Below the pieces are notes generated by a model. It did no database searches, had not been told where the DNA came from, and saw nothing but the letters and a program-made list of their open reading frames with translations. The translations under genes and the position numbers were made by a program. From Chiloscyllium plagiosum (Eukaryota), in assembly GCF_004010195.1 (NCBI RefSeq), contig NC_057717.1, positions 101,931,845 to 101,995,844 of the forward strand: 64,000 nucleotides of DNA, given 5' to 3'. Below are positions 1 through 63,251 of this stretch, piece by piece. Each line of letters starts with the position of its first letter. Position 1 is the stretch's first letter.

Positions 1-170
1 ATCACATTTCCGACGCCCCTCCCCCAAGTCCCTCCTCCCTATCTTTTATCTTAGCCTGCTGGACCAACTTTCCTCATTCCTGAAGAAGGGCTAATGCCCG
101 AAACGTCGATTCTCCTGTTCCCTAGATGCTGCCTGACCTGCTGCGCTTTTCCAGCAACACATTTCCATCT
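1..170 (+). mobile_element. Penelope-like element 3' end (family 1) with hammerhead motif
   Basis: CTGAAGA-A-GGGC-TAAT-GCCC-GAAA-CGTC at 80-107; near-identical to 26482-26575. Confidence 0.7.
76..111 (+). ncRNA. Minimal type-I hammerhead ribozyme motif
   Basis: Core CUGANGA...GAAA intact, 4-bp stem II, palindromic ACGU in place of helix III, GUC cleavage triplet. Confidence 0.6.
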
Positions 171-316
171 ATGTGGTCATAGAACCCCCACCAGTGTGGA
201 ACCAGGCCTCTGGTCCAACAAGTTCACACTGACCTTCCGAAGAGTAACCCACCCAGACCCATTTCCCTCTCCTATATTTACCTAACCTATACATTCCTGA
301 ACACTATGGCCAGTCC

Positions 317-481
317 GGCAAAAGTAGGTACTGCAGATGCTGGAGATTAGAGTCAAGATTAGAGTAGTGCTGGAAAAGCACAGCAGGTCAGGCAGCATCT
401 GAGGAGCAGGAAAACATCGACTTTCCTGCTCCTTGGATGCTGCTTGACCTGCTGTGCTTTTCCAACACTAGTCTAATCTTG
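317..481. mobile_element. Family-1 inverted-repeat insertion inside an HE1 fragment
   Basis: Arms tggaaaagcacagcaggtcaggcagcatc / gatgctgcttgacctgctgtgcttttcca; TSD actatggc(c/t)agtcc at 303-316 and 482-495. Confidence 0.7.
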
Positions 482-774
482 ACTATGGCTAGTCCACTTA
501 ACCTGCACATCTTTGAACTGTGCAAATCTTTCTTCCCCTCAAAGAATTATCCAAGTCACAAATGCACCAATTAATTGTCATTTCAGGCAATGCATTTCAG
601 ATTAAAACCGGTCTCTATATAAAGGAATTCACTTCTCCCCTGCTCAGGTCTTCACCCCCGCTAGTTTACAAAGTATTACGATATATTAACTCCACAGAAA
701 CAGGACATTTAGCCCCATAGATCCAAGCTTTAATCAATCCTCCTCCCAACTTCCTTGCTGTAACATCATTAATG

Positions 775-985
775 AAGGTAAAGGTACCAGGATCCTGGAG
801 GGCTGCTCTGTCATTAGGGAAGGATGACTGCTGGTGGTCCAAGGGTCACCGCATCTCTGGCGAGGGGAGAGGATGAGAAGGTGGGACGTACACGGTAACC
901 TCAGTTGGTGTGGATATTGAACCTGTGCTGTTGGAATCGCTCTGCATCGCAAACCACCGGTCTTGCCAACTGAGAAAACCAAACC
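775..985 (-). mobile_element. Old tRNA-derived SINE (family not verified)
   Basis: Related copies at about 5258-5470, 12140-12315, 24135-24330 and 28945-29060; A/B-box-like head on the minus strand. Confidence 0.55.
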
Positions 986-1132
986 CCTCCCATCAATACA
1001 TCTTTCCTATCTCACCCATAGCTACCTAACTTCCCAACTATGTCACTCATTTTAACTACTGAGGTAATGAATACTAGGTTCTCATATCTGCGTATATAGA
1101 AGTTTTGCTATTCTTTTTCTGCCACCAGTAGA

Positions 1133-1470: not shown

Positions 1471-1680
1471 AAACTGCAGTCCTCATATGGTCTCACTTCC
1501 ATGTGACTCCAAACCCACAGCAATGTAGTTGATTCATAACTGGCCCCTGGGCATTTAGAGTTGGGCAATAAATGCTGGGCTGGCCAGCAATACCCACGTT
1601 CTATGCAGGAGAAAGAAACTAACAAACCAATAAAAATTACAAGTACGATTTGCTCAAGGCCACTGGTTTTTTAAGAATAC

Positions 1681-1864
1681 CTCGGCTACATCGTCTGCTG
1701 TTTGTCCAAGAGTATGGAAGACTTTCTTGGAATAGGGAAGGTAAAGTTGCCGAAACATTTTTGCTGTTTCTTCATCCGTACTGGAGAGGTCCATTTTAGC
1801 AGCATCCTCATACAATTTGGCTTCAAACTCAGTGATGACTGGTCCTGGCTCAATGAGACTGATG
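1681..1864 (-). CDS. RDH8-like SDR paralog, exon 5 (exon 6 presumably outside the window)
   Basis: (N)ISLIEPGPVITEFEAKLYEDAAKMDLSSTDEETAKMFRQLYLPYSKKVFHTLGQTADDVAE; 184 bp, tag/gtatt. Confidence 0.93.
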
Positions 1865-2180
1865 CTAAAGGAAAAGGCAAGAACAGTGCATCAGCATGGC
1901 CAACTATGGAGAAATAATGTAACTACAGGTTAGATGGACATAATGGAATAATGGAAGGGTATGTCAACAGAAATACTAAAGTTTCCAACATACCTTTCAT
2001 CATTGGCATACCTCTACAATACAAAGACACATTTTGTCCTGAAGTAGATTGATGGAATTATGCCAGAGGAATTGGTGTAGGCTGGCATAATTACAACATT
2101 TAAAAGGCATCTGGATGGGTACACGAATAGGAAGGGTTTAGAGGGATATGGGCCAAGTGCTGGCAAATGGTAATAGATTA

Positions 2181-2361
2181 TGATTTGGAGGAGCCAGTGT
2201 TGGACTGGGGTGGACAAAGTTTAAAAATCACACAACACCAGGTTATAGTCCAACAGGTTTAATTGGAAGCACTAGCTTTCGGAGCGCCGCTCCTTCACCA
2301 GGTGGTTGTCTCCGAAAGCTAGTGCTTCCAGTTAAACCTGTGGGACTATAACCTGGTATTG
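2181..2361. mobile_element. Family-2 inverted-repeat element with hammerhead-like motif, inserted in a CR1 tail (about 2054-2443)
   Basis: Arms accaggttatagtccaacaggtttaattggaagcactagctttcgga and its reverse complement; 12-bp TSD ggtaatagatta at 2169-2180 and 2362-2373. Confidence 0.7.
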
Positions 2362-2604
2362 GGTAATAGATTAATTGAAATATCTGGTCAGCATGGCCGA
2401 GTTGAACTGAAGGGTCTGCTTCCCTGCTGTACAGCTCTGACTTCTAAATACATTCCTTATGAATGACCAAGTACCGGCATGCCTGGATAGCTCCAAGACA
2501 CTCCATCTTAAAATGGCCTCAAGTTATTATCTCAATACAACATGAACCAGTGGCAGTATAAGCATTGTAGCTCACCTGATTTCTTTGAAAAAATGTTTAT
2601 TCAA

Positions 2605-3043
2605 TCAACCTGAATGTGGAGCAGGTAGGATTTGAACCTGGGTCTCCTGGCTTGGAGGTAGAGACACTGCCACTGCATTGCAAGAGCCCTCAGAGCTGCA
2701 CACTAATTTTTTTAAAAAGTGAATTAGAGAGAGAAACAATGCACTCCAACCCCTGTGGTGCTCACCTCTCTCTAAATGTAGCTTACCTGAATTTTCTCTT
2801 TGTATTTTTGAATAAACCTGTTCAGAGATGCTACTACACACCTTTGGAGCAGGTGGGGCTTGAACGCAGGTCTGCTGGATCAGAGATAGGGCCACTAGCA
2901 CTGCTCCACAAGAACCCTTATAGCTCCCTAGATTCTTGTTCCTTACCCAACCTGTTCAAAGATATTATTACGTACCTCTGAAGGAGGTATGACTTAAATC
3001 CAGGTCTCTAGCTTCAGAGGTAAGGACACCATAAGAGCCCCTA
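2605..3043 (-). repeat. Three copies of a ~105-bp tRNA-like SINE unit
   Basis: Minus-strand unit agggctcttgtggtgcagtggtagtg...ccaggttcaagtcccacctgctcca (consensus); more copies at 17934-18150. Confidence 0.6.
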
Positions 3044-3170
3044 AGAAGTCCCCTGATCTTTCTTTAGCAACTAATATTCAGAAATGTTCTTCCACAAACC
3101 TGAATGTGTCATTAAATCACCCAAACACCTGGAGTATTGTTATTTCATCTATTAACCACCATCAGTAAAT

Positions 3171-3475
3171 AGCACTGCTGCCTCACAGCGCCAGAGACCC
3201 GGGTTCAATTCCCGGACTCAGCTGACTGTCTGTGTGGAGTTTGCACATTCTCCCCGTGTCTGCGTGGGTTTCCTCCGGGTGCTCCGGTTTCCTCCTACAG
3301 TCCAAAAGTGTGCAGGTTAGGTGAATTGGCCATGCTAAATTGCTCGTAGTGTTAGGTGAAGGGGCAAATGTAGGGGACTGGGTCTGGGTAGGTTGCTCTT
3401 CGACGGGTTGGTGTGGACTTGTTGGGCCGAAGGGTCTGTTTCCACACTGTAAGTAATCTAATCTAATCTAATCTA
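3171..3475 (+). mobile_element. HE1-type SINE, slightly 5'-truncated
   Basis: (aatct)n tail; 10-bp TSD atcagtaaat at 3161-3170 and 3476-3485. Confidence 0.9.
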
Positions 3476-3861
3476 ATCAGTAAATCAGGTGTATTTTCTA
3501 ACTGAACCATTTGCATGCAGGTTGACTTGAACTCACCTCTCCTAGCTCAGGGATGGAAAATCACTCCTCAAACACAAGAATCTCAAAGTTCAACAAGTGT
3601 ATAAACTACACCTATGATTTGTGACACTGAATTCTATAAGGCTAGCAAGCTTATGGGCTATTTTGAGATAAGGTGATCTTAGCTAAGCAAAGTGAGACGT
3701 GCATATGCTACATATCAGATCAGCGTCATGCAACTAGGGAGGTGAAGAAAATATAAGTTTATTGAACACACCAGATGTAAATGAAGCCTGAGCCTTTTAA
3801 AAGGATGGAATTCTGAATTTTTTTTTTAAACTTCTGGTTCAAAAATCTTCAATGCTCTTAC

Positions 3862-3955
3862 TTTATATTGAATTTTAAGGCTTGAATTGCCAAACTTTCA
3901 CAGAAACCCTCCACAGCAAATTTTGATGCTGAATAGACATCGTTGAAGAGAAGAC
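3862..3955 (-). CDS. RDH8-like SDR paralog, exon 4
   Basis: (G)[30 protein letters not shown]; YxxxK catalytic motif; 94 bp, cag/gtaag. Confidence 0.94.
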
Positions 3956-4096
3956 CTGGAAATATGAAGAACAAATGATGTTATTCCCAGCCAAATGAAA
4001 CCGAAGTTTAAGTTTGACAATAAAATGTTATGCGTTCCATACTGCAGACACATTAAATGTCACTGAGCTGATGGGACATCAAAATCTTCAACCTAC

Positions 4097-4276
4097 CGTG
4101 GATTCCCATAACGCTACTCATGACGACAATGTGGCCCTTCTGCCTTCTTTTCATGTCAGGTAAAATCTCCTTCACCAAACGAGTCAGACCAAAGAAGTTT
4201 GTGTCAAACACCATTTTCATGGTGTCTAAGCTTTGGCACTCAACTGGTCCGATGAGTCCCATTCCAGCATTACTCA
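4097..4276 (-). CDS. RDH8-like SDR paralog, exon 3
   Basis: (V)SNAGMGLIGPVECQSLDTMKMVFDTNFFGLTRLVKEILPDMKRRQKGHIVVMSSVMGIH; 180 bp, tag/gtagg. Confidence 0.94.
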
Positions 4277-4493
4277 CTAAAACAAAGAGAACAATCAAGT
4301 GCAATTTAATGATTTTGCTCAAATAGATGTTATCATGAACCAGAAACAAATGTAAAATGTTATCCCCCAAAAGTGTGGAACTGATTAAGACTTAGAAGAC
4401 TCAAAAAAAATCAAGTTTTCATAATGCTAACTACCTATGTGAACTTGTTCTTCCTAGTTACCTGTGAATGGAGGTGAACTAACGCTACCATGG

Positions 4494-4812
4494 AAACCCT
4501 GCAGTGTGGAAAGCAGCCATTCAGCCCATCGCATCTGCGCCAATCCTCCAAAAGCATCCCACCCTGATGCAGTACCCCCAATCTATCCCTGCAACCCTGT
4601 ATTTTTACCATAGCGAATTCACCGCACCTAGACACGACAGGGCAATTTTAGCATGGCTAATCTATCTAACCTGCGCATTCTTGGACTGCGGGAGGAAACC
4701 GGAGCACCCAGAGGAAACTCAGGCAGATTCCGTACAGACAGTCACCCGAGGCTGGAATCAAACCTGGGTCTCTGGTGCCGTGAGGCAGCAGTGCTAACCA
4801 CTGAGCCACCAT
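4494..4812 (-). mobile_element. HE1-type SINE
   Basis: Reverse complement of the HE1 consensus seen elsewhere in the window. Confidence 0.8.
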
Positions 4813-5614
4813 GCAGCCCATAGCCCTGGTTATGATGTGTTTAGGAAACTTTAACAGAGCTATGAGACAAAGATCAGGTCAGTGGGAATAATTAGATAGC
4901 TTTTTGATTGAACCTGTAGAGGCACCATCCTCCTATGTTGTATTATGCTGTGGTTCTTTCTGAAAAAAAACCCTATGGAAAAGTAGCTGGCCTCCGCTGC
5001 CTTCCACAGCAGTGGAATTGAAGCAATATACTTGCTGCAGCGAATTCTGTGTCCTAATTTGCTTTGTTCCCACTCTGAGAGTAATCTGTAGAATAGAATT
5101 GTGTTCAAGAATTTGAAGTCAAATTAGGGTTTGGCTGGGTTAAGAGCTAGAGGTGGGTTTCAAATTAGTCTGAATTGCTTGAGGTTCGGATGTAGTTATA
5201 GTTAGCTTTACCATGAAGCTGGGGCTTTAGGTTTAGAACTAGGGTTGGAGTTGTATTATGTCACCATTGTCTTACCAGACCATAGGGGCTGCTCTCTCAT
5301 TAGAGAGAGAAGCAACTGGTGGTGATTTAACCTTGAGTGCCACCAGACTTCAGGCAAGGGAAGAGAGATTGAGAAGGACTGTCCTTCATTGTAACCTCAA
5401 ACCAGTGATGGGAATCGAACCCACGCTGTTGGCATCACACTGCTTTTAAACCAGCAACTGAGCTAAACTGATTTCCAGGATTGAAGTTAGGATACAGCTA
5501 ATTATGTTCAAGGGTGACTTGATTCTATTCAATTGCTTTTTTTATTATTTCAATGAGGAAACTTTAAAAATGAATTCATCTTGTGTTTCTTTCTTTTTGT
5601 TTTATAAACCTCAC

Positions 5615-5776
5615 CCAAAATGTCCACTTTTTGTCCTGGAATACTGTTCACACATTTGCAGATGGAATCTTCACTGCAAACATCAAGTTCTTTAATTTCC
5701 AGCATGTTGTCCAATGTCTCGCGTGCCGCGTCTTCCAGTTGTTTCTTCTTGCCTAAATCTCGCATTGTTGCAATAA
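5615..5776 (-). CDS. RDH8-like SDR paralog, exon 2
   Basis: (V)IATMRDLGKKKQLEDAARETLDNMLEIKELDVCSEDSICKCVNSIPGQKVDIL; 162 bp, ag/gtgag; same size and phase as rdh8 exon 2. Confidence 0.93.
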
Positions 5777-6079
5777 CTCCAACAAAATAAAGTTAAACTG
5801 TGGCATCTTATTTGTGGCGATTCTTTTTGATGTAACATAGAGCCACTTGGTATACACAGAACATATTTCATATTCTAAACATAAATAATGGTTTATATTG
5901 TTTTCATTTTATATCAATACAGAGTTGGAATGAGTATTGAGCTTAAAAAGTGATCAGTTGACCCAGTTTAATAGTGCAATAATAGTCACCAATGCAATTT
6001 AACAGTAGAATCCATGTTGTAAAGCACATAGAGGGAGTTCAAGTCATATCCATTCACAAGATAAGGTTTAGATGAAGTT

Positions 6080-6620
6080 ATAGAACATAGAACACAGAAC
6101 AATACAGTGCAGAACAGGCCCTTTGGCCCTCGATGTTGCGCCAATCTGTGAACTAATCTAAGTCCATCCCCCTATACTATCCCATCATCATCCAAGGATT
6201 GTTTAAATCTCCCTAATGTGGCTGTGTTAACAACATTGGCAGGCAGAGCATTCCATGCCCTTACCACTCTCTGAGTAACAAACCTGCCTCTGATATCTGT
6301 CTTAAAGCTACCACCCCTCAAATTGTAGCTATGCCCCCTCAGCATCCTAGGAAAAAGCATTTCACTGTCTACCCTATCTAATCGTCTGATCATCTTATAT
6401 GTCTCTATCAAATCCCCCCTTAGCCTTCTTTTTTCCAATGAGAACAGACCCAAGTCTCTCACTCTTTCCTCGTAAGACCTTCCCTTCAGACCAGGCAACA
6501 TCCTGGAAAGTCTCCTCTGCACCTTTTCCAATGCTTCCACATATTTCCTGTAATGGGGCGACCAGATTGTACAAAATATTCCAAGTGTGGCCGCACTAGT
6601 GTTTTGTATAGTTGCAGCAT
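6080..6620 (-). mobile_element. CR1-type LINE 3' fragment
   Basis: ORF 6172-6669 WSPHYRKYVEALEKVQRR...RLRGDLIETYK, the CR1 ORF2 C-terminus; (ttctat)-type tail. Confidence 0.88.
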
Positions 6621-7301
6621 GAGCTATACTGTGAACTGTTCTGAATTCCTCTGAACTGTTTTGTCTCACCTTAGCTGAATATCAGTTTAATCCATGTTAC
6701 CATTCCAGCTTATTTCTCAAATGTGTGTACTTTTCTCTGTGATCATCTTTCTTAGTAACTGAACACAAATGTAGTCAGTCCATCAAACCAGCTTTGCTTA
6801 TTAAAGGCTCATTTTTCTATCTCACCTTTAGTAACCTCAGAATATTCCAAAGTGCCTTGTCACCAATGAAATCCTTTTTGAGGTACAGTCACTATTGTGG
6901 AAACAGGACAGTCAATTCATGCACAGCAAGCTCCCACAAACAGTAATGGAATAACACCAGATAATCTGCTTGACTGTTGTCAATTGACAGATAAATATTG
7001 GTCAAGGCGATGTTATGGTCTTTAAAAGAGTGTCATAAGATGTTTTCCAACCACCTGAGGCAAACAGTCAGAAATTCAGTTCAACACCCCGCCTTCAAAG
7101 CATCATGTGGGAAGTGATGGCCCAGTGGTATTATCGCGATATTATTAATCTGAAGAGGCAGGTAATGTTCTGGGTAAATAAAAATGGATGCTGTAAATCA
7201 GAAACAAAAACAGAGATTGCTGGAAAAAGCTCAGCAAGTCTGGCAGCATCTGGGAAGAGAAGTCAAAGTTAAAGGTTTGGGTCCAATTACCCTTCCTCAG
7301 A

Positions 7302-7605
7302 ATATCCTTCTTATAGCTGGGAGACCAGAATTGCACGCAATATTCCAACAGTGGCCTAACCAATGTCCTGTACAGCTGCAACATGACCTCCCAGCTCCTG
7401 TACTCAATACTCTGGCCAATAAAGGAAAGCATACCAAACACCTTCTTCACTATTCTATCTACCTGTGACTCCACTTTCAAGGAGCTATGAACCTCCACTC
7501 CAAGGTCTCTTTGTTCAGCAACACTCCCTGGGACGTTAGCATTAAGTCCCACCCTGATTTGCCTTTCCAAAGTGTAGCACTTCACTATTATTGAAATTAA
7601 ACTCC
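7302..7605 (-). mobile_element. CR1-type LINE fragment (inverted part)
   Basis: QRDLGVEVHSSLKVESQV...LYRTLVRPLLEYCVQFWSP. Confidence 0.85.
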
Positions 7606-8112
7606 GTGCAATTTTGACCTTCCTTCTATGGGAAGGATGCTGTGAAACTTGAAAGGGTTCAGAAAAGATTTACAAGGATGTTGGCAGGGTTGGAGGATTT
7701 GAGCTATAGAGAAAGGCTGAACAGGCTGGGGCTATTTTCCCTGGAGCGTCAGGAGGCTGAGGGGTGACCTTATAGAGGTTTGTAAAATCATGAGGGGCAT
7801 GGATAGGGTGAATAGTCTAAAACTAGAGGGCATAGGTTTAAGGTGAAAGGGGAAAGATTTAAAAGGGATCTTAAGGGCAACATTTCTCATGCAGAGGGTG
7901 ATGCGTGTATGGATTGAGCTGCTGGAGGAAGTGGTGGAGGCTGGTACAATTACTATATTTAAAAGGCATCTGGTTGGGTATATGAATAGTAAGGGTTTAG
8001 AGGGATATGGGCCAAACACTGGCAAATGAGACTAGATTAATTTAGCATATCTTGTCAGCATGGATGAGTTGGACTGAAGGGTCTGTTTCTGTGCTGTACA
8101 ACTCTATGATTC
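7606..8112 (+). mobile_element. CR1-type LINE 3' fragment
   Basis: Begins at the VQF region, continues to the gaagggtctgtttctgtgctgta tail. Confidence 0.85.
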
Positions 8113-8302
8113 TGACACTCGGTGCATATAACCTTTGCTTTGCTTTGCTTTAAATATAGCATGTGGGCAACTCAGAATTCTGTGCAGGAACAACACACAG
8201 TAAGCCATTTCCGATTGAGATAATTGGGATAAATTGTTTCAGTCAGGTGTTGAACCCGTGGAATTCTCTGCCACAGAAGGCTGTGGAGGCCAAGTCATTA
8301 AA

Positions 8303-9068
8303 TCATACAGTACCGAAACAGACCCTGCGGTGCAACCAGTCTACATCGAATATAATCCCAAACTAAATGAGTCCCACCTACCTGCTCCAGGCCCATATCC
8401 CTCCAAACCTTTCCTATTTACGTATTCATCCAAATGTCTTTTAAACGTTGTAACTGTCCCTACATCCACCACTTCCTCAGGAAGGTCATTCCACACACCC
8501 TTTGTGTAAAACGTTTACCTCGTCTTTTTTAAATGTCTCTCCTCTCATCTTAAAAATGTGGCCCCTAGTCTTGAAATTCCCCATCTTGGGGAAAAGACAA
8601 CTACCATTAGCCCTATCTGTACCTCTCATTACTTATAAACTCCTATCAGGCCACCTCTCAACCTTCTACGATTCAGTGAAAAATATCCCCCAGCCTATCC
8701 AGCTTTCTTTATAACTCAAGCTTTTCATACCCAGCAACATCGTGTCAAATCCCTTTTAAAGTCTCTCCAGCTTGATAATATCCTTCCTATAACAGAGTGA
8801 CCAGAACTGGACAGTACTCCAGAACAGGCCTCACCAATGTCCTGTACAACCTCAATATAAGATCCAAACTCCTGTACTCAAAGGACTGAGCAATGAAGGC
8901 AAGTCTGCCAAATGCCTTTTTAGCTATCCTCGCTACATGTGATGGAAACTTTAAAGAATTATGTACGTGCACCCCCAGGTCCTTCTGTTCTACAACATTA
9001 CCCAAGCCCCTACCATTGCTTATTGTACCAAAATGCAATATTTTGCATTTATCCAGATTGAACTCCAT
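8303..9068 (-). mobile_element. CR1-type LINE 3' fragment nested in an older + strand CR1 tail
   Basis: ORF 8787-9068 MEFNLDKCKILHFG...LYRTLVRPVLEY. Confidence 0.85.
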
Positions 9069-9999
9069 TAAGTAGTTGAGTATATTTCAAGAGAGAGATT
9101 TTTAGAATCTATGGGTGTCAAGAGGTATGGTGGCAGGGGTTGGGGGGAGTAGGACTTTTGAGGTAGAGGATCAGTGATGATCATGTCAAACATTGGAATG
9201 GGACATTGGGTTTACTCCTGCTTATATTTCCCATGTTTAGTGAGATATAGGCAGTTACATCCAGGATTGAACAACAATTTCATTTACATTATTACATCTC
9301 TCCCAATCTTCAGTCGTCCCTTTTATAAAACTTATCTCCTTGATCATCCAAACTCCCCCCGACTCCAAATCCCAACTTGGTTCTTTCACCCAAATTGTCA
9401 AACAGCTTTTGATGTTTTACTGTGTGAAGGCAAGTTAAATGTCAGTAATGAAGGACTGACACTCTTACTAATAGTAATGTGCACCAGAGCTCTAAAAGCA
9501 AGTTCTGCATTAACACCGGTTTTAACTGATCGTCGGTAAGGGCAAATCGTAGTATCTTAAAAATGTATAGTTCAATGAGGCCATTCAGCCCATTGTGTCC
9601 ATGCTGACTGACAAATTGCTATTCAGCATAATCTCATGTTCAGCTCTTCTTCCATTGTTTTATAAATTATTCCATTTTGAATGCATGTCCATGTATGGGA
9701 GGAACCTGATTTACAAACATCTGACTTACGAACACGTACTAATGCATGCGATCTCATATAGGTTGCAGTTTTAAAAGTCAGACATAGGGGCTTTTCCGAA
9801 TGGCTGCTTTACATTATCCTGCACTGTGTCCTGACCTTGCGAGTAAATCTGCACCCGTTCAGAACCCAGGGGTGGCCTCCTTTTCTTTTTAGAAGTTGTG
9901 GGGGTTCCTGTCTCTATCACACTTTCAGACTGAGAGTTTCAGAACTGCAATCCAACTGGGTCAAGAGATCTCCCTTCAAATTTTGTTTCACTTTGTGGG

Positions 10000-10840
10000 A
10001 GGACCATGAACAGCATTGATGTACAGAGAGATCTGGGGGTTCAAGTCCATAGCTCCCTGCAATGTGGCCACTCAAGTAGATAGGGTGGTAAAGAAGGCTT
10101 GCCTTTATTGGTCGGGGAATTAAATACAAGAGTCAGGATGCCATGTTGCAGCTTTATAAGATTTTGGTTACACAGCACTGACAGTATTGCATTCAATTCT
10201 AGTTGCCACATTACAGGAAGGATGTGGAGGCTTTGGAGAGGGCGCAGAAGAGGTTTACCAGGATGCTGCCTGGATTAGAGGGTAGGACAATAAGGAGAGA
10301 CTAGAAGAATTTGGGTTGTTTACTCTGGAGTGGTGAAGGCTGAGAGGTGACTTGATGGAAATCTATAAAATTATGAGGTGCATAGATAGGGTTGATGGTC
10401 AAGATCTTTTTCCCGGAGTTGAAATGTCTAATACTGGCAGGCATGCATTTAAGGTGAGGGGGTGAAAGTTCAAAGGAGATGTGAGGGGCAAGTTTTTTTA
10501 GGAGGGCTGATGAAGGGCTTTTGCCCAAAACACCGATTTTCCTGCTCCTCGGATGCTGCCCTGACCTGCTGTGCTTTTCCAGCGCCCTCTAATCTTGACT
10601 CTAATTTCCAGCATCTGCAGTATCCACTTCTGCCAAGAATTTTTAGGAGTCTGGAATGTGCTGTCAGGTGGAGGCAGATATGGTAGGAGCGTTTCAGGGA
10701 CTTTTAGCTAAGCACATGAATATGCAAGGAATGGAGGGATGTGGACCAAGGATAGGTGGAAGGGATTAGTTTAATTTGGTGTCATGTTTGGCACAACATA
10801 GTGGGCTGAAGGGCCTGTTCCTGTGCAGTATCGTCCTACC
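10000..10840 (+). mobile_element. CR1-type LINE 3' fragment with family-1 insertion (about 10500-10635)
   Basis: CR1 C-terminal motifs; embedded ctgatgaagggcttttgccc. Confidence 0.8.
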
Positions 10841-11079
10841 TTGTTAACCCCCCTGCCTGGAGGTAATGGAACTGTCAGTCAAGGAGTATGGACATAGAAA
10901 GAGCTAGAAAATACAACTAAACTGGAACGCCCATCTCCTGGTACAGACATGGTGGTCACAATGATGTCTTTCTGTGCTGGAATTTTTAATGTACATTTTT
11001 ATGTACATTTTCACAACATAACCTAAAGATCTTGCTTCAATATTAACTCTTGGTTAGAACACAGCAGAAGCTGTCTTAC

Positions 11080-11176
11080 CTTTGAATCGTTTCAACTGAT
11101 CTTTTGCTAGTTTGACTGCCAGTGCCAGGCCAATACCTGAGGAACAGCCTGTGATTACAACAGTTCTTGGAGACAT
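11080..11176 (-). CDS. RDH8-like SDR paralog, coding exon 1
   Basis: MSPRTVVITGCSSGIGLALAVKLAKDQLKRFK; Kozak-like cacc-ATG; TGxxxGxG; 97 bp, G|gtaag. Confidence 0.92.
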
Positions 11177-12086: not shown

Positions 12087-12514
12087 TACTATAGCTGCCA
12101 TGCCAGGGATAGATTGCATAGTAATAAGTTAAAAGGGCAAGTTGCCACATTCCATTAGAGAGAGACAACTAGTGATAGTTTAATCTGAGGGTCACTGCGC
12201 CTCAGGTGAGGGGAGGGGTTGAGAAGCAAAGTCCTTCATGGTAACCTCAGCCAGTGAGAGAATTGAACCCACATTGTTGACATTATTTTGCATCATAAAC
12301 CAGACAACTGAGCTGTTTTGTTTTCCATGGTGATAAGAAGCTAAAAAAGAACAGATACAGTCCCTCTATGAATGTATCCATCTGTCTCTTCACTGACCTT
12401 AAGCCTGGGTGATCCACATGACAACGTCCTGCATTTATGTTGCACCTTTAAGTATATAAACATCTAACGAAATAATATAAAGCATATTTTGACACCAAGC
12501 TGCATAAGGAAATA

Positions 12515-12638
12515 GCCAGGGAACAGGAGAATCGACGTTTCGGGCATAAGCCCTCCCTGGATGCTGCCTGACCTGCTGCGCTTTTCCAGCAACACATTTT
12601 CAGCTCTGATCTCCAGCATCTGCAGACCTCACTTTCTC
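12515..12638. mobile_element. Family-1 inverted insertion
   Basis: 15-bp TSD ctgcataaggaaata at 12500-12514 and 12639-12653. Confidence 0.75.
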
Positions 12639-13510: not shown

Positions 13511-13744
13511 TACTTATATACATCTTGGAAACCATACACCGACACTCTTTTGTTTGAAGCAGGTAATCCTTTGATGTTAGAACACAGAAGAAGGTTGTGC
13601 AGTTCGGTTCTAAAAAAGAATCAGACTGAACTCGAAACATGAACTCTGTTTCTCTCTCCACGCATGCTGCCAGACCTGCTGAATTTCTCCAGCACTTTCT
13701 GTTTTCATTCAGCCCATCATGCTTGTGATAGTTCACTGACAAAG

Positions 13745-48132: not shown

Positions 48133-48282
48133 TATTTACCTAGAAGTCTTTAGACGGCACCAATTAAGCAAAGAAGTTTAGATAGTACATTAAAACCAAT
48201 ATGCTATCCCAACATTCCTATATTTGTAACAATTTGCAATCTAATCTAGATTATGAATTGTTGCAATTAAATTCAGAATTAG

Positions 48283-48486: not shown

Positions 48487-49358
48487 AAATTCAGCATTAG
48501 ATTTACCAGTGATACGAGGAGAAAATTTATTTAAGATGCTGCTTCTGAAAATATTGGTCACTTTTTATGATTCATTCCATGAGTGTGGGTGTCACTGGCA
48601 ATTATTACACCTGAGAAGGGGATAATGAGCTTCCTTCTCGAGTACAATGGAATGTTATTCTAGGCTATTTGTTGTTGGGGCAAAACTGTGTGCTCCCTTC
48701 TAACAGCATTCCATACTCTGACGGATTAAGAAAGCAGCTCAGCACTACCTTATCAGAGGCAGTAAGGGATAGGAAATAAATGCTAGCCCAGATAGCAATG
48801 CTGATATCCTGTCAATGAGTAAAATGTGGTCAATTAAGAGTTAACTGCATTGCTGTGGGTCTAGAAATACATGCCAGCTAAACTAGGTAAGAACAATAGA
48901 TCATTGTCATGAAAGGGACATGAGTGAACCATACGTGCTTCTATATAATAATCCTACAGTTTAAAAGTCACTAATTCTGTTCCTACACTCCTTCTTTTCA
49001 AATCCAAATACTTCCATTAAAATTCCTCATTATATTGTAGTAGGATTTGTACTTGCATTAGACCAGACATTTGTGATGAATCACAATTAATGCTTCAGGA
49101 ACATCAGTATGGAACAAAGATGTCACAAAATATATTAAGGCAAACGGTTAAGACGTAATTCCTACACCTTTTCTGGTTTCAAAAAATGTCTGTTTGCTTA
49201 AGCAGCCATCTTACCAATGTTCTGTCCTTATTTGTCCCTGGGACATGAACAGTAAGGCTAACATTAGTTTCCCTTGCGAAGATTGACATGAGGCACCCGT
49301 ATTCAGGCATTACTAAATCATTTCCTTTGAGTCAGCACCTAGTAAACAGAACACCTAC

Positions 49359-49464
49359 CATAAAACTGTTCCTTGGTATCGTTTGCAAGATGAATAGCAA
49401 GCTTCAAACCAATTCCAGAGGAGCATCCTGTAATCAGGACCACCTTTTGCCTGTCGTTTGCCAT
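49359..49464 (-). CDS. rdh8: Retinol dehydrogenase 8, coding exon 1
   Basis: Translates MANDRQKVVLITGCSSGIGLKLAIHLANDTKEQFY; SDR TGxxxGxG Rossmann motif; 106 bp, phase-1 donor G|gtagg. Confidence 0.93.
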
Positions 49465-49547: not shown

Positions 49548-50170
49548 GGATCAGGTCTCTCTTGATAAACCTTGTGAAACCTTATGCTCCAGTGTTGTAC
49601 ATATATCCCAATAGTATGAGCTGGAGCATCATGAAGACATTTTTGTGTGATTCACAGAGTATGCGATAAAATTTGGAACTACAAAGGACATCATAAGTAT
49701 AAAATAGTGAAATATTCTTTTGTGTATGTAATTTCTAAAAATTAATGGTCAATAATTTTATTTTTCAAGTAAGTCTTTGTGTGCAGATGAATTTCTGTAA
49801 AACATCTCTTAATATATGTGTTTAAAACAGGCAAGTTCAAATGTGAATACGGATGTGAAAATTTGTAGTGGAATAGCAAAACAAAAGGATAAATGGCTTG
49901 AGTTTGAAGGAGAAACTCAATTACATCCATGCAGTTACCCTACCCTGATTATGTCCTGCACTGTAAGAAATACAATCACTGAATTGCTGCAGCACAGAAA
50001 GAGGCCATTTGGCCCATCGTGCCTGCACTGATTCTTCAATTGAACAATGTTAACCAATGCGTATCACTTGCTTTCTTCCCAAATCCCTGCATACCTTTCC
50101 GATTTAAATAATCATCCAATGCCCTCTTGAATGCCTCAACTGAACCTGTCTCAAATACATTTCCGAAGTA

Positions 50171-50708
50171 GACAGGCAGGGAGCTGGAAGAACACAGCAA
50201 GGCAGGCAGCATCAGGAGGGACAGGCAGGGAGCTGGGGGAACACGGCAAGACAGGCAGCATCAGGGGACAGGCAGGGAGCTGGAGGAACACAGCAAGGCA
50301 GGCAGCATCAGGAGGGACAGGCAGGAGGCTAGGGGAACACGGCAAGGCAGGCAGCATCAGGAGGGACAGGCAGGGAGCTGGAGAAACACAGCAAGGCAGG
50401 CAGCATCAGGAGGGACAGGCAGGAGGCTAGGGGAACACGGCAAGGCAGGCAGCATCAGGAGGGACAGGCAGGGAGCTGGAGGAACACAGCAAGGCAGGTA
50501 GCATCAGGAGGGACAGGCAGGGAGCTGGAGAAACACAGCAAGCAGGCAGCATCAGGAGGGATGGGGCAGGGAGCTGGAAGAACACAGCAAAGGCAGGAGC
50601 ATCAGGGAGGGAGGGGCAGGGAGCTGGAAGAACACAGCAAGGCAGGCAGCATCAGGAGGGACAGGCAGGGAGCTGGAAGAACACAGCAAGCCAGGCAGCA
50701 TCAGGAGG
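50171..50708. repeat. Minisatellite, ~49-bp unit, about 11 copies
   Basis: Unit gacaggcagggagctgga(a/g)gaacacagcaaggcaggcagcatcaggagg. Confidence 0.93.
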
Positions 50709-50935
50709 TGGAGAAGTCGACATTTCGGGTGTAACCCTTCTTCTACCTGTGTTCACATAACCCCACCTCACCACCCTACACCCACCACCCTCTTTATCTG
50801 CAACTCTACCTTAACTCAGTCCCAGTCCTGAAGAAGGGTTACTCCCGAAACGTCGACTTCTCCACCTCCTGGCTTGCTGTGTTCTTCCAGCCTCCTGCCT
50901 GGCTATTTTGGATTCCAGCATCTGCAGTTTTTTTG
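50709..50935. mobile_element. Family-1 variant inverted pair with hammerhead motif
   Basis: AGTC-CTGAAGA-A-GGG-TTACT-CCC-GAAA-CGTC-GACT at 50824-50858; related copies at 40981-41110 and 62540-62630. Confidence 0.7.
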
Positions 50936-51213
50936 TCACTATCCAATGCATTTCCAGCAGACCACTGCATTCCTTAATTACTTGCTGTTGGAAAACGTAT
51001 CACTCTTGCTTCCTGGTTGGGCGATGCTGGAATCTGAACAGAAAACAGTAACTGCTGGAGATCACAATAGGTCAGCAACATCCATGGAGAGAAAGCAAGT
51101 TAATGTTTCGAGTCTAGATAACTCTGATGAAAACTTTGTTGCCAGACCTGCTGTGATCTGCACCAATTTTTGCTTTCACTTTTAATCTATGCCCTCTCGT
51201 TCTTGTTCCTTTC

Positions 51214-55499: not shown

Positions 55500-56415
55500 A
55501 AAAGTGGGAATGGGTTCTCATCAGCTGCTCTGTCCCAGCCCACTCATAATTTTGCAAATCTCAATCAGAACTTCTCAGCCTTCTTCTCTTCAAGGAGGAT
55601 AGTCCCAATGTCTTCAATCAGTCTTCATAACTGCAGATCCTCATCACTGGGACCATTCTTGTACACCACTTCTGTGCTTTCTGCAATGCATTTACATCTT
55701 TCTCATAATGTGGTGCTTAGACTGTATGCAGTACTCCAGCTGAGGTGTGTCAAGTATCTTGCTCAAGCTTAAAAGTCACACAACACCAGGTTATTGTCCA
55801 ACAGGTTTATTTGGAAGCACTAGCTTTCGGAGTGCTGCTCCTGATAACTATCTGATGAAAGAGCAGTGCTCCAAAAGTTAGTGCTTCCAAATAAACCTGT
55901 TGGACTATAACCAGGTGTTGTGTGATTTTTAACTTTGTCCAAACCAGTCCAACACCGGTGTCTCCAAATCTTGTACAAGCCCAACATCATCATCCTCCTC
56001 TTGTACTCAATGCCCCTATTAATAAAACTGGGGACACATTATTAACTGCTCTCTCCAGCTGCCCTGCCACCTTCACTGATCTGTGCACAAATACACCCAG
56101 GTCCCTCTGCTCCTGCAGCCCCTTTAGAATTCAACCCCAACTATTTCACATTATTTTTCAATGTTCTTCCAACCAAAGTGCATCACCTCACACTCGTCTG
56201 CATTGAATTTGATCTGCAACCTATCCACCCATCCATGTCCTTTTGTAGTTCCAAACTGTCCTCCTCAAGTTTGCTATTTCTCCAAGTTTCATATCATCTG
56301 AAAACTTTGAAATTGTCCCCTGCCCACCAAGATCCAAATCATTAATATATATCAGGAAAGCAAAGGTACCAATACCAAACTCTGGGGATGTCAATTACAA
56401 CCCTTCCCCCAGCCT
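55500..56415 (-). mobile_element. Degenerate CR1-type LINE (host of the L1 and of a family-2 element at about 55770-55967)
   Basis: CR1-like sequence continuing from 49960-50168 and 51181-51212. Confidence 0.65.
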
Positions 56416-56724: not shown

Positions 56725-56727
56725 CAC

Positions 56728-56878
56728 TGAAAGTGAGGTCTGCAGATGCTGGAGATCAGAGTCAAAATGTGTGTTGCTCTTCTTCCTGATGAAGAGCTTA
56801 TGCTCGAAACGTCGACTCTCCTGTTCTGTGGATGCTGCCTGACCAGCTGCACTTTTCCAGCACCACACTTTTTGACCC
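56728..56878. mobile_element. Family-1 inverted element with hammerhead motif
   Basis: CTGATGA-A-GAGC-TTAT-GCTC-GAAA-CGTC at 56786-56813. Confidence 0.7.
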
Positions 56879-57433: not shown

Positions 57434-58008
57434 TTATCCAATCCTTTGTCTGTCCAACTGTTCTTCTCTGTCTTTGGGCTCTATCCCCACGTCTCATTTC
57501 CTCCTTACCCCCTCCCTCTACCCTACCTTCTGCGTATAAGTCAACATTTTCCTTGCTACCATCACCACAGAGGAAGGGTCACTTGACCTGAAATTCTGAT
57601 TTCTCTCCACAGATGCTGCCAAAGTTTCTGACCTTTTCCAGCAACTTCTGTTTTTTTTTCTGACTTACAGCATCCGCAAGTCTTTTGGCCTTTGCAAACT
57701 AGACAAGGCTGTGGGAGGGTTGGACAGAATGTAAGAGAAATGGGTTTTTATGCGATGTTGGAGGTGGTGAGTGGTCTGCGAATTGTTTCCCAGGGTATCC
57801 CCTGCTGGTCAAGGTAGAAAAGCTAGAAGTCTTTGTCTTGTCTCACTGTACTTAATGAAGCACCCACAATGGTATTTGAAGCAATCTGTCAATTCTGAAT
57901 CCTGATGACAACAAACTGGAATGGCACAGCATGATGGGTAAAGCTCTGGATCTACCTTAACCTTTCGAAAATTACAGAATTCTACTAATTTAAAGTTGTT
58001 TAAGCTGA

Positions 58009-58352: not shown

Positions 58353-60107
58353 GTGATGGAACTGGATATAATGTCAATCAGCTCACAGGTGGAATGTGTA
58401 GTTCATTACTGCTGAAGTACTGGGTGCAGTTCTGGTCACCACACTAAAGGAAAGGTGTGATTTCACTAGAGAGGGTGCAATGGATGTTCCCTGGGCTGGA
58501 ACTATTCAGCTATGATCAGAAGCTAGATAGGCTGGGGTTGTCTTCCTTAGAACAGGGAATGCTGAGGGGGCAACCTACCTGCAATGTACAAACTTCTGTG
58601 GGCTATAGACAGGGTGGTTTGGGAGAAACCTTTCCCCTCATTACCAGGGGCACCAGGTAGGAAGTAGGAGGGTGAGAGGGGATTTGAGAAAAAAAAACAT
58701 TTTCACTCTGAAGGTGGTGGATATTTGTAACTTACTGCTAAAAAAATGTTGGTGGAGGAGGCAACCTTCAAGATATTTAAAAAGTATTGAGATAAACACT
58801 TGAAATGCAATACTATGCAAGGATACTGACTATGCTGGAAAATGTCATCAAAAAAGATAGATGTTTGATTAGCAGATGGGCTGAAGGAACTGTGTTGTTA
58901 AAAGGTTTGTGAATATCACGTGCAGCAGGTCCTCTTTCTTTCGTAATCTGTTAGACCAGACTCAACTTGTCTTCATCACCGCCCAACTTCCTTTCACATA
59001 TTAAGTCAGAAGTCACATGACACCAGGTTATGGTTCACTTGAAGTCAGAAGCGTTTGGAGTACTGCTTCTTCATCAACTGAAGTGTCTTGTCCAGCCCAG
59101 TCCAACACGGGCAGCTCCACCTCAGAGCTACCATTGGCACTGCATATTAAGTGGCACTGAAATCAGAAGCTCCAATAATTATACAGTGTGCCGTTGCCAA
59201 GGTGACTTACTGTTCCCTGCTTTTTCCTTCCCCATATGATTGATCCGAATATGGCTTGCCCATTCCTGACCCTCACCCTGGATGAACAGTTTCCCAGAAG
59301 GAGGAGAATTGTCACAATTAGAAGTATTGCTGAATGCTGTATTTTAGACCTGCACCAGTTAGTCAATTGATAAATCTAGCATTTGAACAGAAGCTCCCAT
59401 GGCTCTGCTTTGTAAAAATTCCTCTTAATTATGCCTGAAACCAATGACCTTTTAATATTTAAGGGGGGAACATTCCTACAGTGTTTATATTGGAAGCAGC
59501 TGCTGATGAATTGCAAGGTCATTTTATCTCGTTCATGACAAGATAAACATGTTCTGTTGCGTATTTTTGATATAGTTTGTTTTATCAAACAGGATAGAGT
59601 TTATGATTTCATTCACTGTTTGCATACATTGTAGTAATGACTTACTGTTCATAAGACTGAGAACATTTCATAAGTTGTATTTAATTTCAAAGTTTATTGT
59701 TTTTTTGTCATTATGCTTCTTAATAAATGTCCTTTATAATAAGTCTTTGTTTTACTGTAACAGCAGATCTGGCTTTTGTACCAAGTAATGCCCACTCACC
59801 AACACTGTCCCTCTCCCCTCACCTACCTTAGTTAATGGATTACTGTTGGGGAATTACACATCATCCTATTCCTTTGGTTTCAAAATTAGTTGGACATTGT
59901 ATTTTAACTTGCTTCATTCTGTTGCATTTGTACATTGTAGTCCATTAGATATTAGGCCTCAACCTTAGTTTGTGTCTTTTGTATCTTGCCCAGCTAAGTG
60001 TCAACATTTGTTAACAATTTTGTGAACAACTTTCATCAACGTGTTTTGTCACACCTCAAATAATTCAATGAGGCTTGTGAGGCATGACCTGCCCCTCACA
60101 AAGCTAT

Positions 60108-61520
60108 GCCGACTCCACTGGAGTAGTACCAGATGATTGGAGGGTGGCAAATGCTATTTCCATGTTCAAGAAAGGGAATAAGGATAATCCTGAGAATTAC
60201 AGATCAGTCAGTCTTGCATTGATAAGGCTGGGCAAATTATTGGAGAGAATTATGAGAGACAGGATTTATGATTATTTGGAAAAGCAAAGTTTGATTAGAG
60301 ACAGCCAGCATGGCTTTGTGAGGGGCAGGCTTCACTAGCCTTATTGATTTTTTTGAAGATGTGACAAAACACATTGATGAGGTAGAGCAGTGGATGCCAT
60401 GTACGTGGATCTTAGCAAGGCGTTTGAAAAGATTCCCCATGGTAGGCTCATTTGGTCAGTAAGGAGGCATAGGATACAGTGAAATCTGTCTGTCTAGATA
60501 CAGAATTGGCTGACCCATGGAAGACAGAGTAGATGGAAAGTATTCAGCCTGAAGCTTGTTGGCCAGTGGTCTCTGCAGGGAGCTCATCTGAGACCTCTTC
60601 TCTTTCTGATTTTCATAAATGACGTGGATGAGGAAGCGGAAGGGCAGGTTAGTAAGTTTACAGATGACATGAAGTTTGGTGGAGTTGTGGATAGTGTGGA
60701 GGGCTGTTGTAGGTTGCAACAGGACATTGACAGGATGCAGATCTAGGCTGAGAAATGGCAGATGGATTCAACCTGGAAAAGTGTGAAGTGATTCGTTTTG
60801 GAAGGTTGAATTTGAATGCAGAATACAGGGTTCAAGGCAGGATTCTTGGAAGTGTGGAGGAATGGAGGGATCTAGGGGTCCATATTGATAGGTCCCTCAA
60901 AGTTGCCACCCAAGTTGATAGGGTTGTTAAGAAGGCGTATGGCGCGTTGGCTTTCATTAGCAGACGGATTGAGTTTAAGAGTCGCAAGGTTATGCTGTAG
61001 TTCTATAAAGCCTTGGTTAGGCCACACTGGGAATATTGTGTTCAGTTCTGATCATTTCATCATAGGAAGGATGTGGAAGCTTTCGAGAGGGTCCAGGATG
61101 CTGCCTGGACTGGAGGGCATGTCTTAAGAAGAAAGGTTGAGGGACCTAGGGTTTTTTTCATTGGAGTGAAGAAGGATGAGAGGTGACTTGATAGAGGTGT
61201 ACAAGATGTTGAGAGGCATAAATAGAGTGGATAGCCAGAGACTTTTTCCCAGGGTGGAAATGGCTATCATGAGTGGATATAATTTTAAGGTGATTGGAGG
61301 AAGGTTCAGGGGAGATATCAGAGGTAGGTTCTTTACACACAGAGTGTTGAGTGTGTGGAATGCACTGGCAGCGATGGAAGTAGAGTCAGATGTGTTAGGG
61401 ACATTTAAGCGACTCTTGGATAGGCACATGGGTGATAGTAAAATGGAGGGTGTGTGGGTTTGTTTGATCTTAGAGTAGGATAAAAGCTGGAGGGCCGAAA
61501 GACCTGTACTGTTCTATGTT
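60108..61520 (+). mobile_element. CR1-type LINE (RT and 3' end, frameshifted)
   Basis: TGVVPDDWRVANAISMFKKG..QHGFVRGR; RGDLIEVYK. Confidence 0.9.
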
Positions 61521-61755
61521 ATAAAAGCAAAATATTGCTGAAGCTGGAAACCTGAAACAAAGACAGAAAGGGTTGGAGAATCTCAACAGGCTGGCAGCAT
61601 TTGTGGTGAGTGAAAAACAGAGTTAACATTTCAAATCTGATATGACTCTTCTTCAGCTGTGAAAGAGGCTGAAAAATGGTGGATTTTCTGCTAGTGACAC
61701 AGGAGAGGAGGAGAAAGTGTCCACAGATAAAGACAAAAGGAGTGCTAAAGGCAAG

Positions 61756-62049
61756 GGGTGGCACGGTGGCTCAGTGGTTAGCACTGCTGCCTCACAGCGC
61801 CAGGGACCTGGGTTCACTTCCAGCTTTGGGTGGCTGTCTGTGTGGAGTTTGCACATTCTCCCTGTGACTGTGTGGGTTTCCTCTGGGTTCCTCCCACAAT
61901 CCAAAGATGTGCAGGTCAGGTGAATTGCCAATAGTGTTCAGGGATGTGTAGGTTCAATGTATTAGTCAGGGGAAACATAGAGTAACAGGAAAATCTGGGT
62001 TGGATATTGTTGGGTTGAATGGTCTGCTTCCACACTGTAGGGATTCTAA
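61756..62049 (+). mobile_element. HE1-type SINE
   Basis: Match to other HE1 copies. Confidence 0.82.
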
Positions 62050-63124
62050 TGGTGGTGAAGGAGAAGTGGAGATTTAAAATAGGTGTTAATATCTTGATTT
62101 CTTAACCAATGAGATCTGATCTTCAAAGAAATAAAGGTCATGAGCAAATCTTGTGATATTGTTTTGCCTACCTTTTCAAGAGTTGAACAGAAAATCTAAG
62201 GCTGCACATTTAAGAATTTGCCATGGTAAATTTTTAATTCAATTTTTATCCTGTCATTTTGAACTAATCAGTTGGATAATGTTTTACTTTGGTTTGATTG
62301 AGATCCTGAGCACTATTTTTGTGACTGCATCGAACTCCAGCTCAGCATGTGTTCCTCCAATATTTCCCAATTTTGTGCAGGCATCAATTGGAGGTTCACT
62401 TGGTGCCTTCACTAATTATTGTCATCATCTTTGAACAAGACAATATACAGAGAGTAGATCTTGCATCCCAATCTAAAGCTGTTTTTTTTTTAATACCTCA
62501 ATTTTTGAATTGCCCTTCTGTACAAATTACAGGCTACGATCGGGTCCTGACGAGGGGCTACATTCGAAATGTTGACTTCTCCACCTCTTGACCTGGCCTG
62601 CTGTGTTCTTCCAGCCTCCTGCCTGTCTATCAGGAACATTAGGCTTCAAACACGAGGTGAGTGTAGGTCACACAGCCACAATGACAAATCCAAACTTCAC
62701 CCATGATAGGTCTGCGATGAACTATGTGGAATAGCTGTTGTTACTGCTCATGTCACCGTTTACTTTATATCTTGTGAAGAGCTACAATCGCACCAACATG
62801 AGAATTGAGGCATGTTAAAACCATAACTGTGCTTCTGGGCCTCTTACCTAGCGAGAATGCAAATCTTGTCTGATTTTTTTTTAACATATTTTCCCTCCAC
62901 CTGTTAAAGCAGATTGTGTCCAATTAAACTCACTCATGACATCAGTACAGGTTGCAGTAGAGTAGGGCTGGTTCAATTCAGCTGTTCCGACTGAGACACT
63001 GAAGTTTTAAAAGCAATCCAGTGAGTTGTCTGTACTTTTTTTGCATTTGAATTTGTCATAGTTTGTGTTGCATGTCAATTTGCCTCATACCTGATACAAA
63101 ATATGAATCTGGCCTGTCGGGACA

Positions 63125-63251
63125 GAGAAAGTGAGGACTGCAGATGCTGGAGCTCAGAGTCAAAGAGTGTTGTGCTGGAAAAGCACAGCCGGTCAGGCAG
63201 CATCTGAGGAGCAGGAGAATTGACGCTTTGGGCATAAGCTCTTCATCAGGA
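63125..63251 (-). mobile_element. Family-1 monomer
   Basis: gagaaagtgaggactgcagatgctgg...gcataagctcttcatcagg; degenerate hammerhead on the minus strand. Confidence 0.7.

Follow-up and report, generated by a model that had tools for sequence, protein, structure and literature searches.

Minimal hammerhead ribozymes are known from metazoan Penelope-like elements (PLEs), where, according to Cervera and De la Pena (2014; PMC4209133), they are of type I, with a short helix I, an extra base before stem II, a G10.1-C11.1 pair, palindromic positions 15.2-16.2 and no helix III, occur mostly as solitary copies or opposite-strand pairs, and fall into several consensus families per genome. Endonuclease-positive (EN+) PLEs are described in PMC8557442 and PMC3846280 as inserted in units of a pseudo-long terminal repeat (pLTR), an inverted 5′-truncated copy and a 30-40 bp tail at one end, and the Drosophila Penelope pLTR is reported to contain a promoter (PMC2377424). 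For the anole Poseidon element PAc, Frangieh et al. (2024; PMC11167929) report that in vitro two internal starts of the reverse transcriptase (RT) bracket the tail, both DNA strands are extended, and insertion proceeds from uncut RNA, with a protein-assisted hammerhead. The motif, the dimer model, the inverted copy, the one-sided tail and the target duplications are already in print (PMC4209133, PMC8557442, PMC3846280 and the review PMC6765202), and the field has yet to settle by what route PLEs integrate or whether their minimal hammerheads are active in living cells. Here, we analyzed a 64,000-nt stretch of the shark Chiloscyllium plagiosum (NC_057717.1, positions 101,931,845 to 101,995,844; hereafter the window), in which a preliminary description had reported four repeat families carrying a minimal hammerhead motif. 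Our results make it probable that these motifs are minimal hammerheads in the terminal pLTRs of four PLE families, and that most of the dispersed copies are insertion stubs undergoing decay, many of which were likely generated by an RT that initiated ~63 or ~98 bases beyond the ribozyme and extended as far as a 5′-end, likely capped, immediately ahead of it.

Using profile hidden Markov models (HMMs) built from real copies, 51 element arms were found in the window, nine of which are tail-only units of one tandem array. The pattern was located at the coordinates cited by the preliminary description, and the core was reached by 34 arms, 28 of which keep at least 9 of the 11 core bases and 12 all 11, so that the reported count of more than 20 occurrences, decayed copies included, holds. 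A strict descriptor (helix I of at least 3 bp, CTGANGA, stem II of at least 4 bp, GAAA and the palindromic tetramer) matched the window once (44136-44163, minus strand) and none of 100 shuffles of it; in a genomic sample of eighty 10-kb stretches picked by position (764,687 bases without N), 12 matches were obtained versus 0 in each of 20 shuffles. A chance origin of the motifs was ruled out by these shuffles. The sample contained 240 arms, so that about 1 arm in 20 is intact, and scaling to a genome of 3.56 Gb gives ~1.07 million arms and ~53,000 intact motifs (95% range 28,000-93,000). Against these ~50,000, the coelacanth and Xenopus figures in PMC4209133 are ~4,000 and ~9,000, numbers comparable in order of magnitude alone because the descriptors differ. 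About one million short repeats, many hairpin-shaped and readily mistaken for miniature inverted-repeat transposable elements (MITEs) or microRNA precursors, would then be PLE ends. An Rfam scan of the window at E<=5 returned 15 matches, none of them to a curated hammerhead model; its microRNA matches lie below the gathering score and arise from inverted arms. A query with the PLE endonuclease gave 137,979 first-look candidates across the genome, and PLEs may occupy a far larger share of it than suggested by their low profile in shark genome papers, to the extent that these were covered.

Only one copy in the window, 44132-44167 on the minus strand, is structurally complete, with a predicted cut between 44136 and 44135. 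Its stem II, previously given as 5 bp (GGGCA/TGCCC), folds with 4 bp and a 4-nt loop, a form that we prefer because the 5-bp form leaves a loop of 2 nt. The hammerhead secondary structure is the minimum-energy fold of this copy, albeit a weak one (z -0.8, 21% of the ensemble), and when two monomers were co-folded, the predicted product was a duplex through an extended stem II, the program being unable to score a hammerhead dimer. For 50824-50858, folding gave a stem II of 3 bp. The family 1 copies cited in the preliminary description do contain the pattern, with the 5′ strand of helix I lost at 20229, 26484 and 40986 and, at 80-107, a U.U mismatch that is typical of an older family 1 subfamily.

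Covariation was counted by structural parsing of nine types, because a MAFFT alignment of 12 copies across families misplaced family 3. Among types that are related by descent, and without phylogenetic correction, 70 of 72 cells were paired compared with a permutation mean of 40.4, a value equally high arising in 1 of 20,000 shuffles; when five lineages were counted, all 40 of 40 cells were paired (1 of 120 orders). Pairs 1-3 of helix I each take three forms across the types, and the two cells that fail to pair hold the U.U of the older family 1 subfamily and, in a single type of family 3, a G.G. Pairing is thus maintained across types, as the description of the stems as covarying had it. The core CUGANGA / GAAA / UH is invariant in the majority of every type; in all nine types the extra base between positions 9 and 10.1 is A or T, the first base of stem II is G (G10.1), and positions 15.2-16.2 are CG or GC, in keeping with the palindromic tetramer proposed in place of helix III. 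The motifs therefore resemble those of PMC4209133 in being type I with a short helix I, in the extra base, the G10.1-C11.1 pair, the palindromic 15.2-16.2 and the missing helix III, as well as in their mostly solitary or opposite-strand paired arrangement and several families per genome; sharks, start sites and caps are not analyzed in the main text of that paper, as far as it was covered. The most numerous subfamily type (older family 1, for example 76-111; 106 copies) carries U.U at helix I pair 3, and since this subfamily has been massively amplified, a perfect ribozyme does not seem to be needed for spread. The tails of families 1, 1c and 4 (for example 26512-26600) keep a GATGCTG...CAGCATC hairpin with an inner CTGCTG/CAGCA hairpin; the fold z-score of this conserved hairpin was not significant, and it is a candidate protein-binding or RT-start structure.

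All four families could be tied to a PLE reading frame, which confirms their preliminary assignment to PLE-type minimal type I hammerheads. When 30 loci were selected solely by their endonuclease region, 27 had the family 1 hammerhead downstream of GIY-YIG, at one fixed offset in 26 of these, and the remaining three end at N or at a rearrangement. Family 1 open frames of 893 aa and 749 aa match RVT_1 above the cut-off (E 6e-8 for the 893-aa frame) and contain the Cys linker, with GIY-YIG matches just under the cut-off (E 3-4e-4; 4e-4 in the 893-aa frame). Family 2 is found downstream of a second, more distant linker-bearing Neptune frame in 7 of 25 loci, and family 4 downstream of a third (both arms of L156, and L130), 29-48% identical to that of family 1; the frames of both are broken remnants with linker and GIY-YIG. 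Family 3 follows a Penelope/Poseidon-type frame, and loci L067, L077 and L082 show RT motifs and GIY-YIG (E 0.0025) and no linker. The CX2-5CxxC linker was thus seen in families 1, 2 and 4 and not in family 3, as among EN+ PLEs, where it marks Neptune and, according to PMC8557442, a Cys linker is likewise carried by Nematis. By their domain layout, on which the clade names rest as in PMC8557442, families 1, 2 and 4 are of Neptune type and family 3 is of Penelope/Poseidon type. Long candidates examined for a full tandem layout of pLTR, reading frame and pLTR were 5′-truncated or broken by runs of N. The notion of four distinct families stands in that each has its PLE frame; it needs amending in that families 1, 4 and the type at 40986, 50828 and 62547 (1c) are relatives rather than unrelated, because their tails are homologous.

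The ends of the copies proved informative about their origin. Arm neighbours within 600 bp in the genomic sample were head-to-head in 43 cases, tail-to-tail in 2 and direct in 3, and the gap was at most 6 nt in 30 of the 43 head-to-head pairs. The 5′-ends, taken as local-alignment ends accurate to a few bases, fell immediately ahead of the core (-15 to 0) in 100 of 219 arms and around the cut (+20 to +35) in 14, so that truncation at the cut site was ruled out as the main source of stubs. The density reached 11 ends per base at -10 to -5 versus 0.1-0.35 per base at -100 to -20, a pile-up 30- to 100-fold denser than farther upstream. Its edge is an A within TCATTC (family 1) or TCAGTT (family 4), sequences that we take to resemble the Initiator consensus, and a TATAAA lies ~30 nt upstream of the putative start A in families 2 and 4. 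The 3′-ends are bimodal, at ~63 and ~98 nt past the cut; 11 of 12 scorable pairs combine one long with one shorter 3′-end, and target duplications of 8-16 bp were found at most of 30 loci. The head-to-head layout, the optional ~35-nt tail on one arm and the target duplications are those of the EN+ PLE unit as described in PMC8557442 and PMC3846280, from which the present units differ in being usually ~100-200 bp long and in having their inner ends at one preferred site.

The base preceding the start A was then counted in copies starting precisely there. Of 5,359 such family 1 matches in the genome, the first 100 had G in 67 cases, A in 18 and T in 15, and in the first 100 of 1,816 matches of family 2 the base was G in 60, T in 28 and A in 12, compared with 26% G expected (p 8e-18 and 6e-13, respectively); controls one base either side gave G in 21 and 13 of 100. 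The sequence upstream of the extra G is unrelated between loci, and by eye the G is plainly untemplated in 6 of 19 distinct cases. An extra G is reported as a mark of cap copying in full-length L1 (PMC11702581), and the G before the start A fits that extra cap G.

These ends suggest that transcription would start at the Initiator-like A, 4 nt upstream of the core in families 1 and 4 or 8 nt upstream of it in family 2, which would make the hammerhead the first structure of the transcript. The extra G would be the copied cap, and the C complementary to it may often find a G to pair with in the target or in the partner arm. The RT would start in the tail and run to the cap; a single cDNA would give a solo stub, and a head-to-head unit would arise when cDNAs from the two start sites, primed on opposite strands, are joined. 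Stubs would thus derive from uncut RNA, while a minority of transcripts would undergo cleavage, probably with the aid of protein and in dimers formed through the ACGU/AGCU palindrome; the resulting 5′-OH end may occasionally be ligated to U6. The cap and ~30 leading bases would be lost through such cleavage, which could switch the RNA away from translation or limit transposition. The stub 3′-ends and pairs fit the two RT starts, two-strand extension and predicted dimer given for anole PAc (PMC11167929); unlike in that system, capped-leader stubs and cut-site ends are proposed here and the families are mostly Neptune. The inversion, ascribed in PMC3846280 to self-priming on an antisense template, is fitted better in our data by two sense cDNAs.

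Junctions with U6 RNA point to the cut itself. In a set of 46 U6 loci (30 + 16), in which junctions were checked for one family (family-1-type tails), U6 is joined to such a tail in four, all at the first base after C17 (by eye in L341; at HMM coordinate 43 in L314, L331 and L348); none of the 46 shows a join at the start site, though start-site ends are ~7 times commoner. In L331 and L341 the same U6 junction is crossed by both arms, which points to a chimeric RNA template. As reported for U6/LINE-1 chimeras (Moldovan et al., 2019; PMC6789731), RtcB joins U6 to 5′-OH RNA, the end that a hammerhead cut would leave, and here too a full U6 3′-end has been joined to retroelement RNA and then retrotransposed; the LINE-1 positions are variable, whereas the join here is at one predicted ribozyme bond. 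U6 at the predicted bond suggests, indirectly, that the hammerhead is likely to cleave in vivo. Taken together, and with somewhat less assurance than the origin of the motifs, we lean towards reading the shark genome as a fossil archive in which the PLE cycle is preserved: strong-stop-like capped-leader cDNAs, in their hundreds of thousands, would place the transcript start 4-8 nt upstream of the hammerhead, head-to-head units would be two cDNAs made by a dimer from its two internal start sites, and U6 at the scissile bond would record germ-line cutting by minimal hammerheads. The finding matters because the genome supplies very many natural PLE products with base-exact ends, and it predicts a start at the named A, cap copying, both RT starts in one event and a 5′-OH at the hammerhead bond. 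In the literature searched, outside which lay most subscription journals and bioRxiv supplements, nothing was found on cap copying or U6 fusion in PLEs, those of sharks included. U6 copies were also, with great frequency, fused to the 5′ start of short interspersed nuclear elements (SINEs), at L312, L319, L320, L324, L329, L332-L336, L339, L138:6476-6720 and others, and at L315 U6 is joined to a tRNA-like sequence.

How the inserted copies decay was assessed on 80 head-to-head pairs chosen without regard to the hammerhead, by comparing the paired arms of one insertion. At non-CpG positions 29 of 456 core and 296 of 3,250 tail positions differed (p=0.052), with 37.5 core differences expected from base-matched tail rates, and at CpG the figure was 31% for core and tail alike. 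We prefer this test to a cruder nearest-neighbour comparison because the latter is confounded by tail subfamily differences and required alignment into the core. Greater conservation of the core than of its flanks, which the preliminary description had named as a test, was accordingly not seen in the paired arms as a whole and appeared only at A/T sites (p=0.02). The inserted copies decay about neutrally; selection would preserve the fold in active master elements and not in intronic copies.

Several observations speak against parts of this interpretation. U6 at the cut site amounts to four events, a small number; U6 is also joined within PLE endonuclease-coding sequence at two loci (L326 and L330; by eye) and to SINE 5′ starts at many, and the anole PLE gave no reads ending at the cut, according to PMC11167929. 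By eye, a G was on hand in the target or the partner arm in 13 of the 19 distinct G cases. Breaks at -3 (5,707 matches) are as common as those at -4 (5,359), so that the edge of the pile-up is not a single base; the best copy of the window begins at -14 instead of -4; a clean TATA box is lacking in family 1; family 4 shows T and not G before the start A (6 of 6), at least partly at perfect palindromic junctions; and family 3 is mostly without the pile-up, 15 of 17 sampled arms reaching at least 50 nt. The search for reading frames yielded none for type 1c (40986, 50828 and 62547). As to decay, weak core constraint or an ascertainment effect remains, since the A/T core positions are slightly more conserved than the tail in the paired test and the cruder test gave a core divergence of 4.2% versus 7.9% in the tail (p=4e-8).

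An alternative would be that the stubs, of the same PLE origin, are ordinary 5′-truncated copies of the 3′ pLTR, left when the RT stalled or came off shortly after the fold of the hammerhead, with the G reflecting target choice or microhomology. Such an account, which we judge unlikely, draws on the 5′ truncation and inverted 5′ copies that PMC8557442 and PMC3846280 give as standard for PLEs, on the G available in 13 of 19 cases, on the scatter of 5′-ends over -15 to 0, and on the start of the window's intact copy at -14. It does not explain why the G excess sits at one position in two unrelated families and is absent one base either side, why it is also seen where head-to-head arms meet internally, at junctions in which the target is not involved, or why the G is untemplated in 6 of 19; moreover, the position coincides with an Initiator-like A that in families 2 and 4 has TATAAA ~30 nt upstream, and a fold would be expected to halt the enzyme on its 3′ side, before being copied. 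Independent non-autonomous elements (retrozyme-, SINE- or MITE-like) spreading from stub masters, possibly via circular RNA, would account for the very high copy number, the short and fairly uniform length, the hairpin shape and the target duplications. Animal non-LTR retrozymes, which derive from PLE pLTRs, likewise carry a type I hammerhead and are present in the one cartilaginous fish sampled, according to bioRxiv 10.64898/2026.07.22.740005; they are tandem arrays of hammerhead-bearing units, whereas the copies here are solo or inverted stubs. With 3 direct neighbours versus 43 head-to-head, no tandem hammerhead arrays in the sample, and a window array (50171-50708) that repeats the tail alone, with inner junctions that vary from copy to copy instead of being inherited, with stubs lacking the upstream promoter region, and with stub ends the same as in long frame-bearing copies, this origin appears very improbable.

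It has further to be asked whether intronic copies have been co-opted as working ribozymes that cut host pre-mRNA, such as transcripts of the short-chain dehydrogenase/reductase (SDR) genes of the window. The copy 44132-44167 is intact, lies, as previously noted, in sense orientation (in intron 1 of SDR gene A), and has the hammerhead as its minimum-energy fold; ~50,000 intact motifs per genome could offer partners in trans, and family sequences occur on both strands in one of two single-cell poly(A) RNA runs (571 reads). This copy nevertheless belongs to a young insertion 95-99% identical to many others, its fold is weak, and no intact partner exists in the same SDR pre-mRNA, none of the six other sense arms of SDR gene A being intact. 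Single motifs do not cut, as reported in PMC4209133, and the anole motif requires the element's protein (PMC11167929); the 571 poly(A) reads come from other copies, 567 of them fitting in part only, and neither their starts nor their ends pile up. The head-to-head pair 42819..43024 is predicted to form one long hairpin (-113.5 kcal/mol, z -12.8), and in many such pairs a long hairpin would bury both motifs. Because of the near-neutral decay, the burying hairpins, the weak monomer fold, the missing intact sense partner, the single motifs uncut in print and the protein need in anole, a host function for intronic copies is unlikely, and we give co-opted cutting of host transcripts hardly any credence. 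The earlier picture of a genome densely seeded with potential self-cleaving motifs, several of them in introns, is right about the presence of the motifs and overstated in the rest, since ~1 in 20 arms (12 of 240) is intact, the copies decay near-neutrally, head-to-head hairpins are common and an intact sense partner is missing.

The copies in the window comprise the following. The young family 1 (Neptune) stub at 44074..44177 (minus) is a 104-bp insertion of 14 nt of pLTR, the complete hammerhead 44132-44167 and a short tail, flanked by a 14-bp target duplication (44060-44073 and 44178-44191). An older family 1 3′-end runs off the window at 1..180 (plus), with the 3′ untranslated region (UTR), the hammerhead 76-111 with its U.U in helix I, and a tail. 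Family 1 head-to-head pairs lie at 335..476, joined inside the core with no ribozyme left; at 19969..20315, whose minus arm has ~165 nt of 3′ UTR and whose plus arm (20229) has an intact core and no helix I 5′ strand; at 26192..26591, with both cores 11/11; and at 42819..43024, the predicted single hairpin described above. A rearranged family 1 pair lies at 12514..12622. Solo family 1 arms are at 10506..10615 (plus, decayed), 35214..35285 (minus, beginning within a few bases of the predicted cut), 56780..56874 (plus, core 11/11, stem II GAGC/GCTC) and 63142..63256 (minus, decayed). The 196-nt spacer of 26192..26591 (26290-26485) is a 98% inverted copy of 27271-27466, ~800 bp away, and represents local DNA that has been copied into a PLE insertion. 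Type 1c is represented by an arm at 40976..41094 (plus, stem II GGGT/ACCC, core 11/11, helix I 5′ strand lost), an arm at 62544..62637 (plus, core 11/11, stem II damaged) and a head-to-head pair at 50158..50925, whose plus arm holds the hammerhead 50824-50858 with its 3-bp stem II. Within this pair, 50171-50708 is a 49-bp tandem array of 11 copies, grown from the minus-arm 1c tail and free of hammerheads, a minisatellite seeded by a PLE end.

Family 2, the second Neptune lineage, forms head-to-head pairs at 2195..2373 (core 10/11; the minus arm begins at the putative start-site A, with G before that A), 19579..19757 (decayed) and 55754..55958 (decayed), and has left a very decayed arm at 58998..59080 (minus). 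A family 3 (Penelope/Poseidon) 3′-end at 34632..34949 (minus) consists of an endonuclease C-terminal remnant (34949-34764, 63% identical to the frame of L077), a hammerhead with core 10/11 and a tail; two family 3 head-to-head pairs lie at 46954..47143, the minus arm having core 11/11 and a broken palindromic tetramer, and at 48288..48511, with no arm fully intact. Family 4, the third Neptune lineage, is present as a decayed head-to-head pair at 40741..40929 and as arms at 7192..7305 (minus, decayed), 13603..13710 (plus, decayed), 22349..22431 (plus, decayed), 27887..27979 (plus, without the first core box), 51031..51125 (minus, truncated), 57558..57668 (plus, with ~135 nt of pLTR upstream) and 61545..61664 (minus, core 11/11, helices damaged). 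Elsewhere in the genome, a family 4-like pair at L149:1326-1526 has CTTTGACAAAGGG as the first box in both arms and possibly represents a lineage with an altered core.

Two host SDR genes lie on the minus strand of the window. Gene A (29640..49455) has five located exons, near 49431, 40096, 33457, 30546 and 29811, and gene B (1680..11175), its tandem paralogue, has exons near 11152, 5771, 4274, 3935 and 1851. Three of four scanned exons of the two genes matched Pfam adh_short, and SDR exon 2 gave no match against the PDB; the host genes are thus two SDR paralogues, and the name rdh8 used for them in the preliminary description was not confirmed. The located exons of both paralogues appear open. 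Many copies of a tRNA-derived SINE, presumably of the shark HE1 type, are scattered over the window (1123-1469, 3163-3469, 22604-22900, 28226-28482, 31231-31527, 32237-32845 and others), and an intron of SDR gene A contains a recent 472-bp tandem duplication (36117-37060) whose copies are 98% identical.

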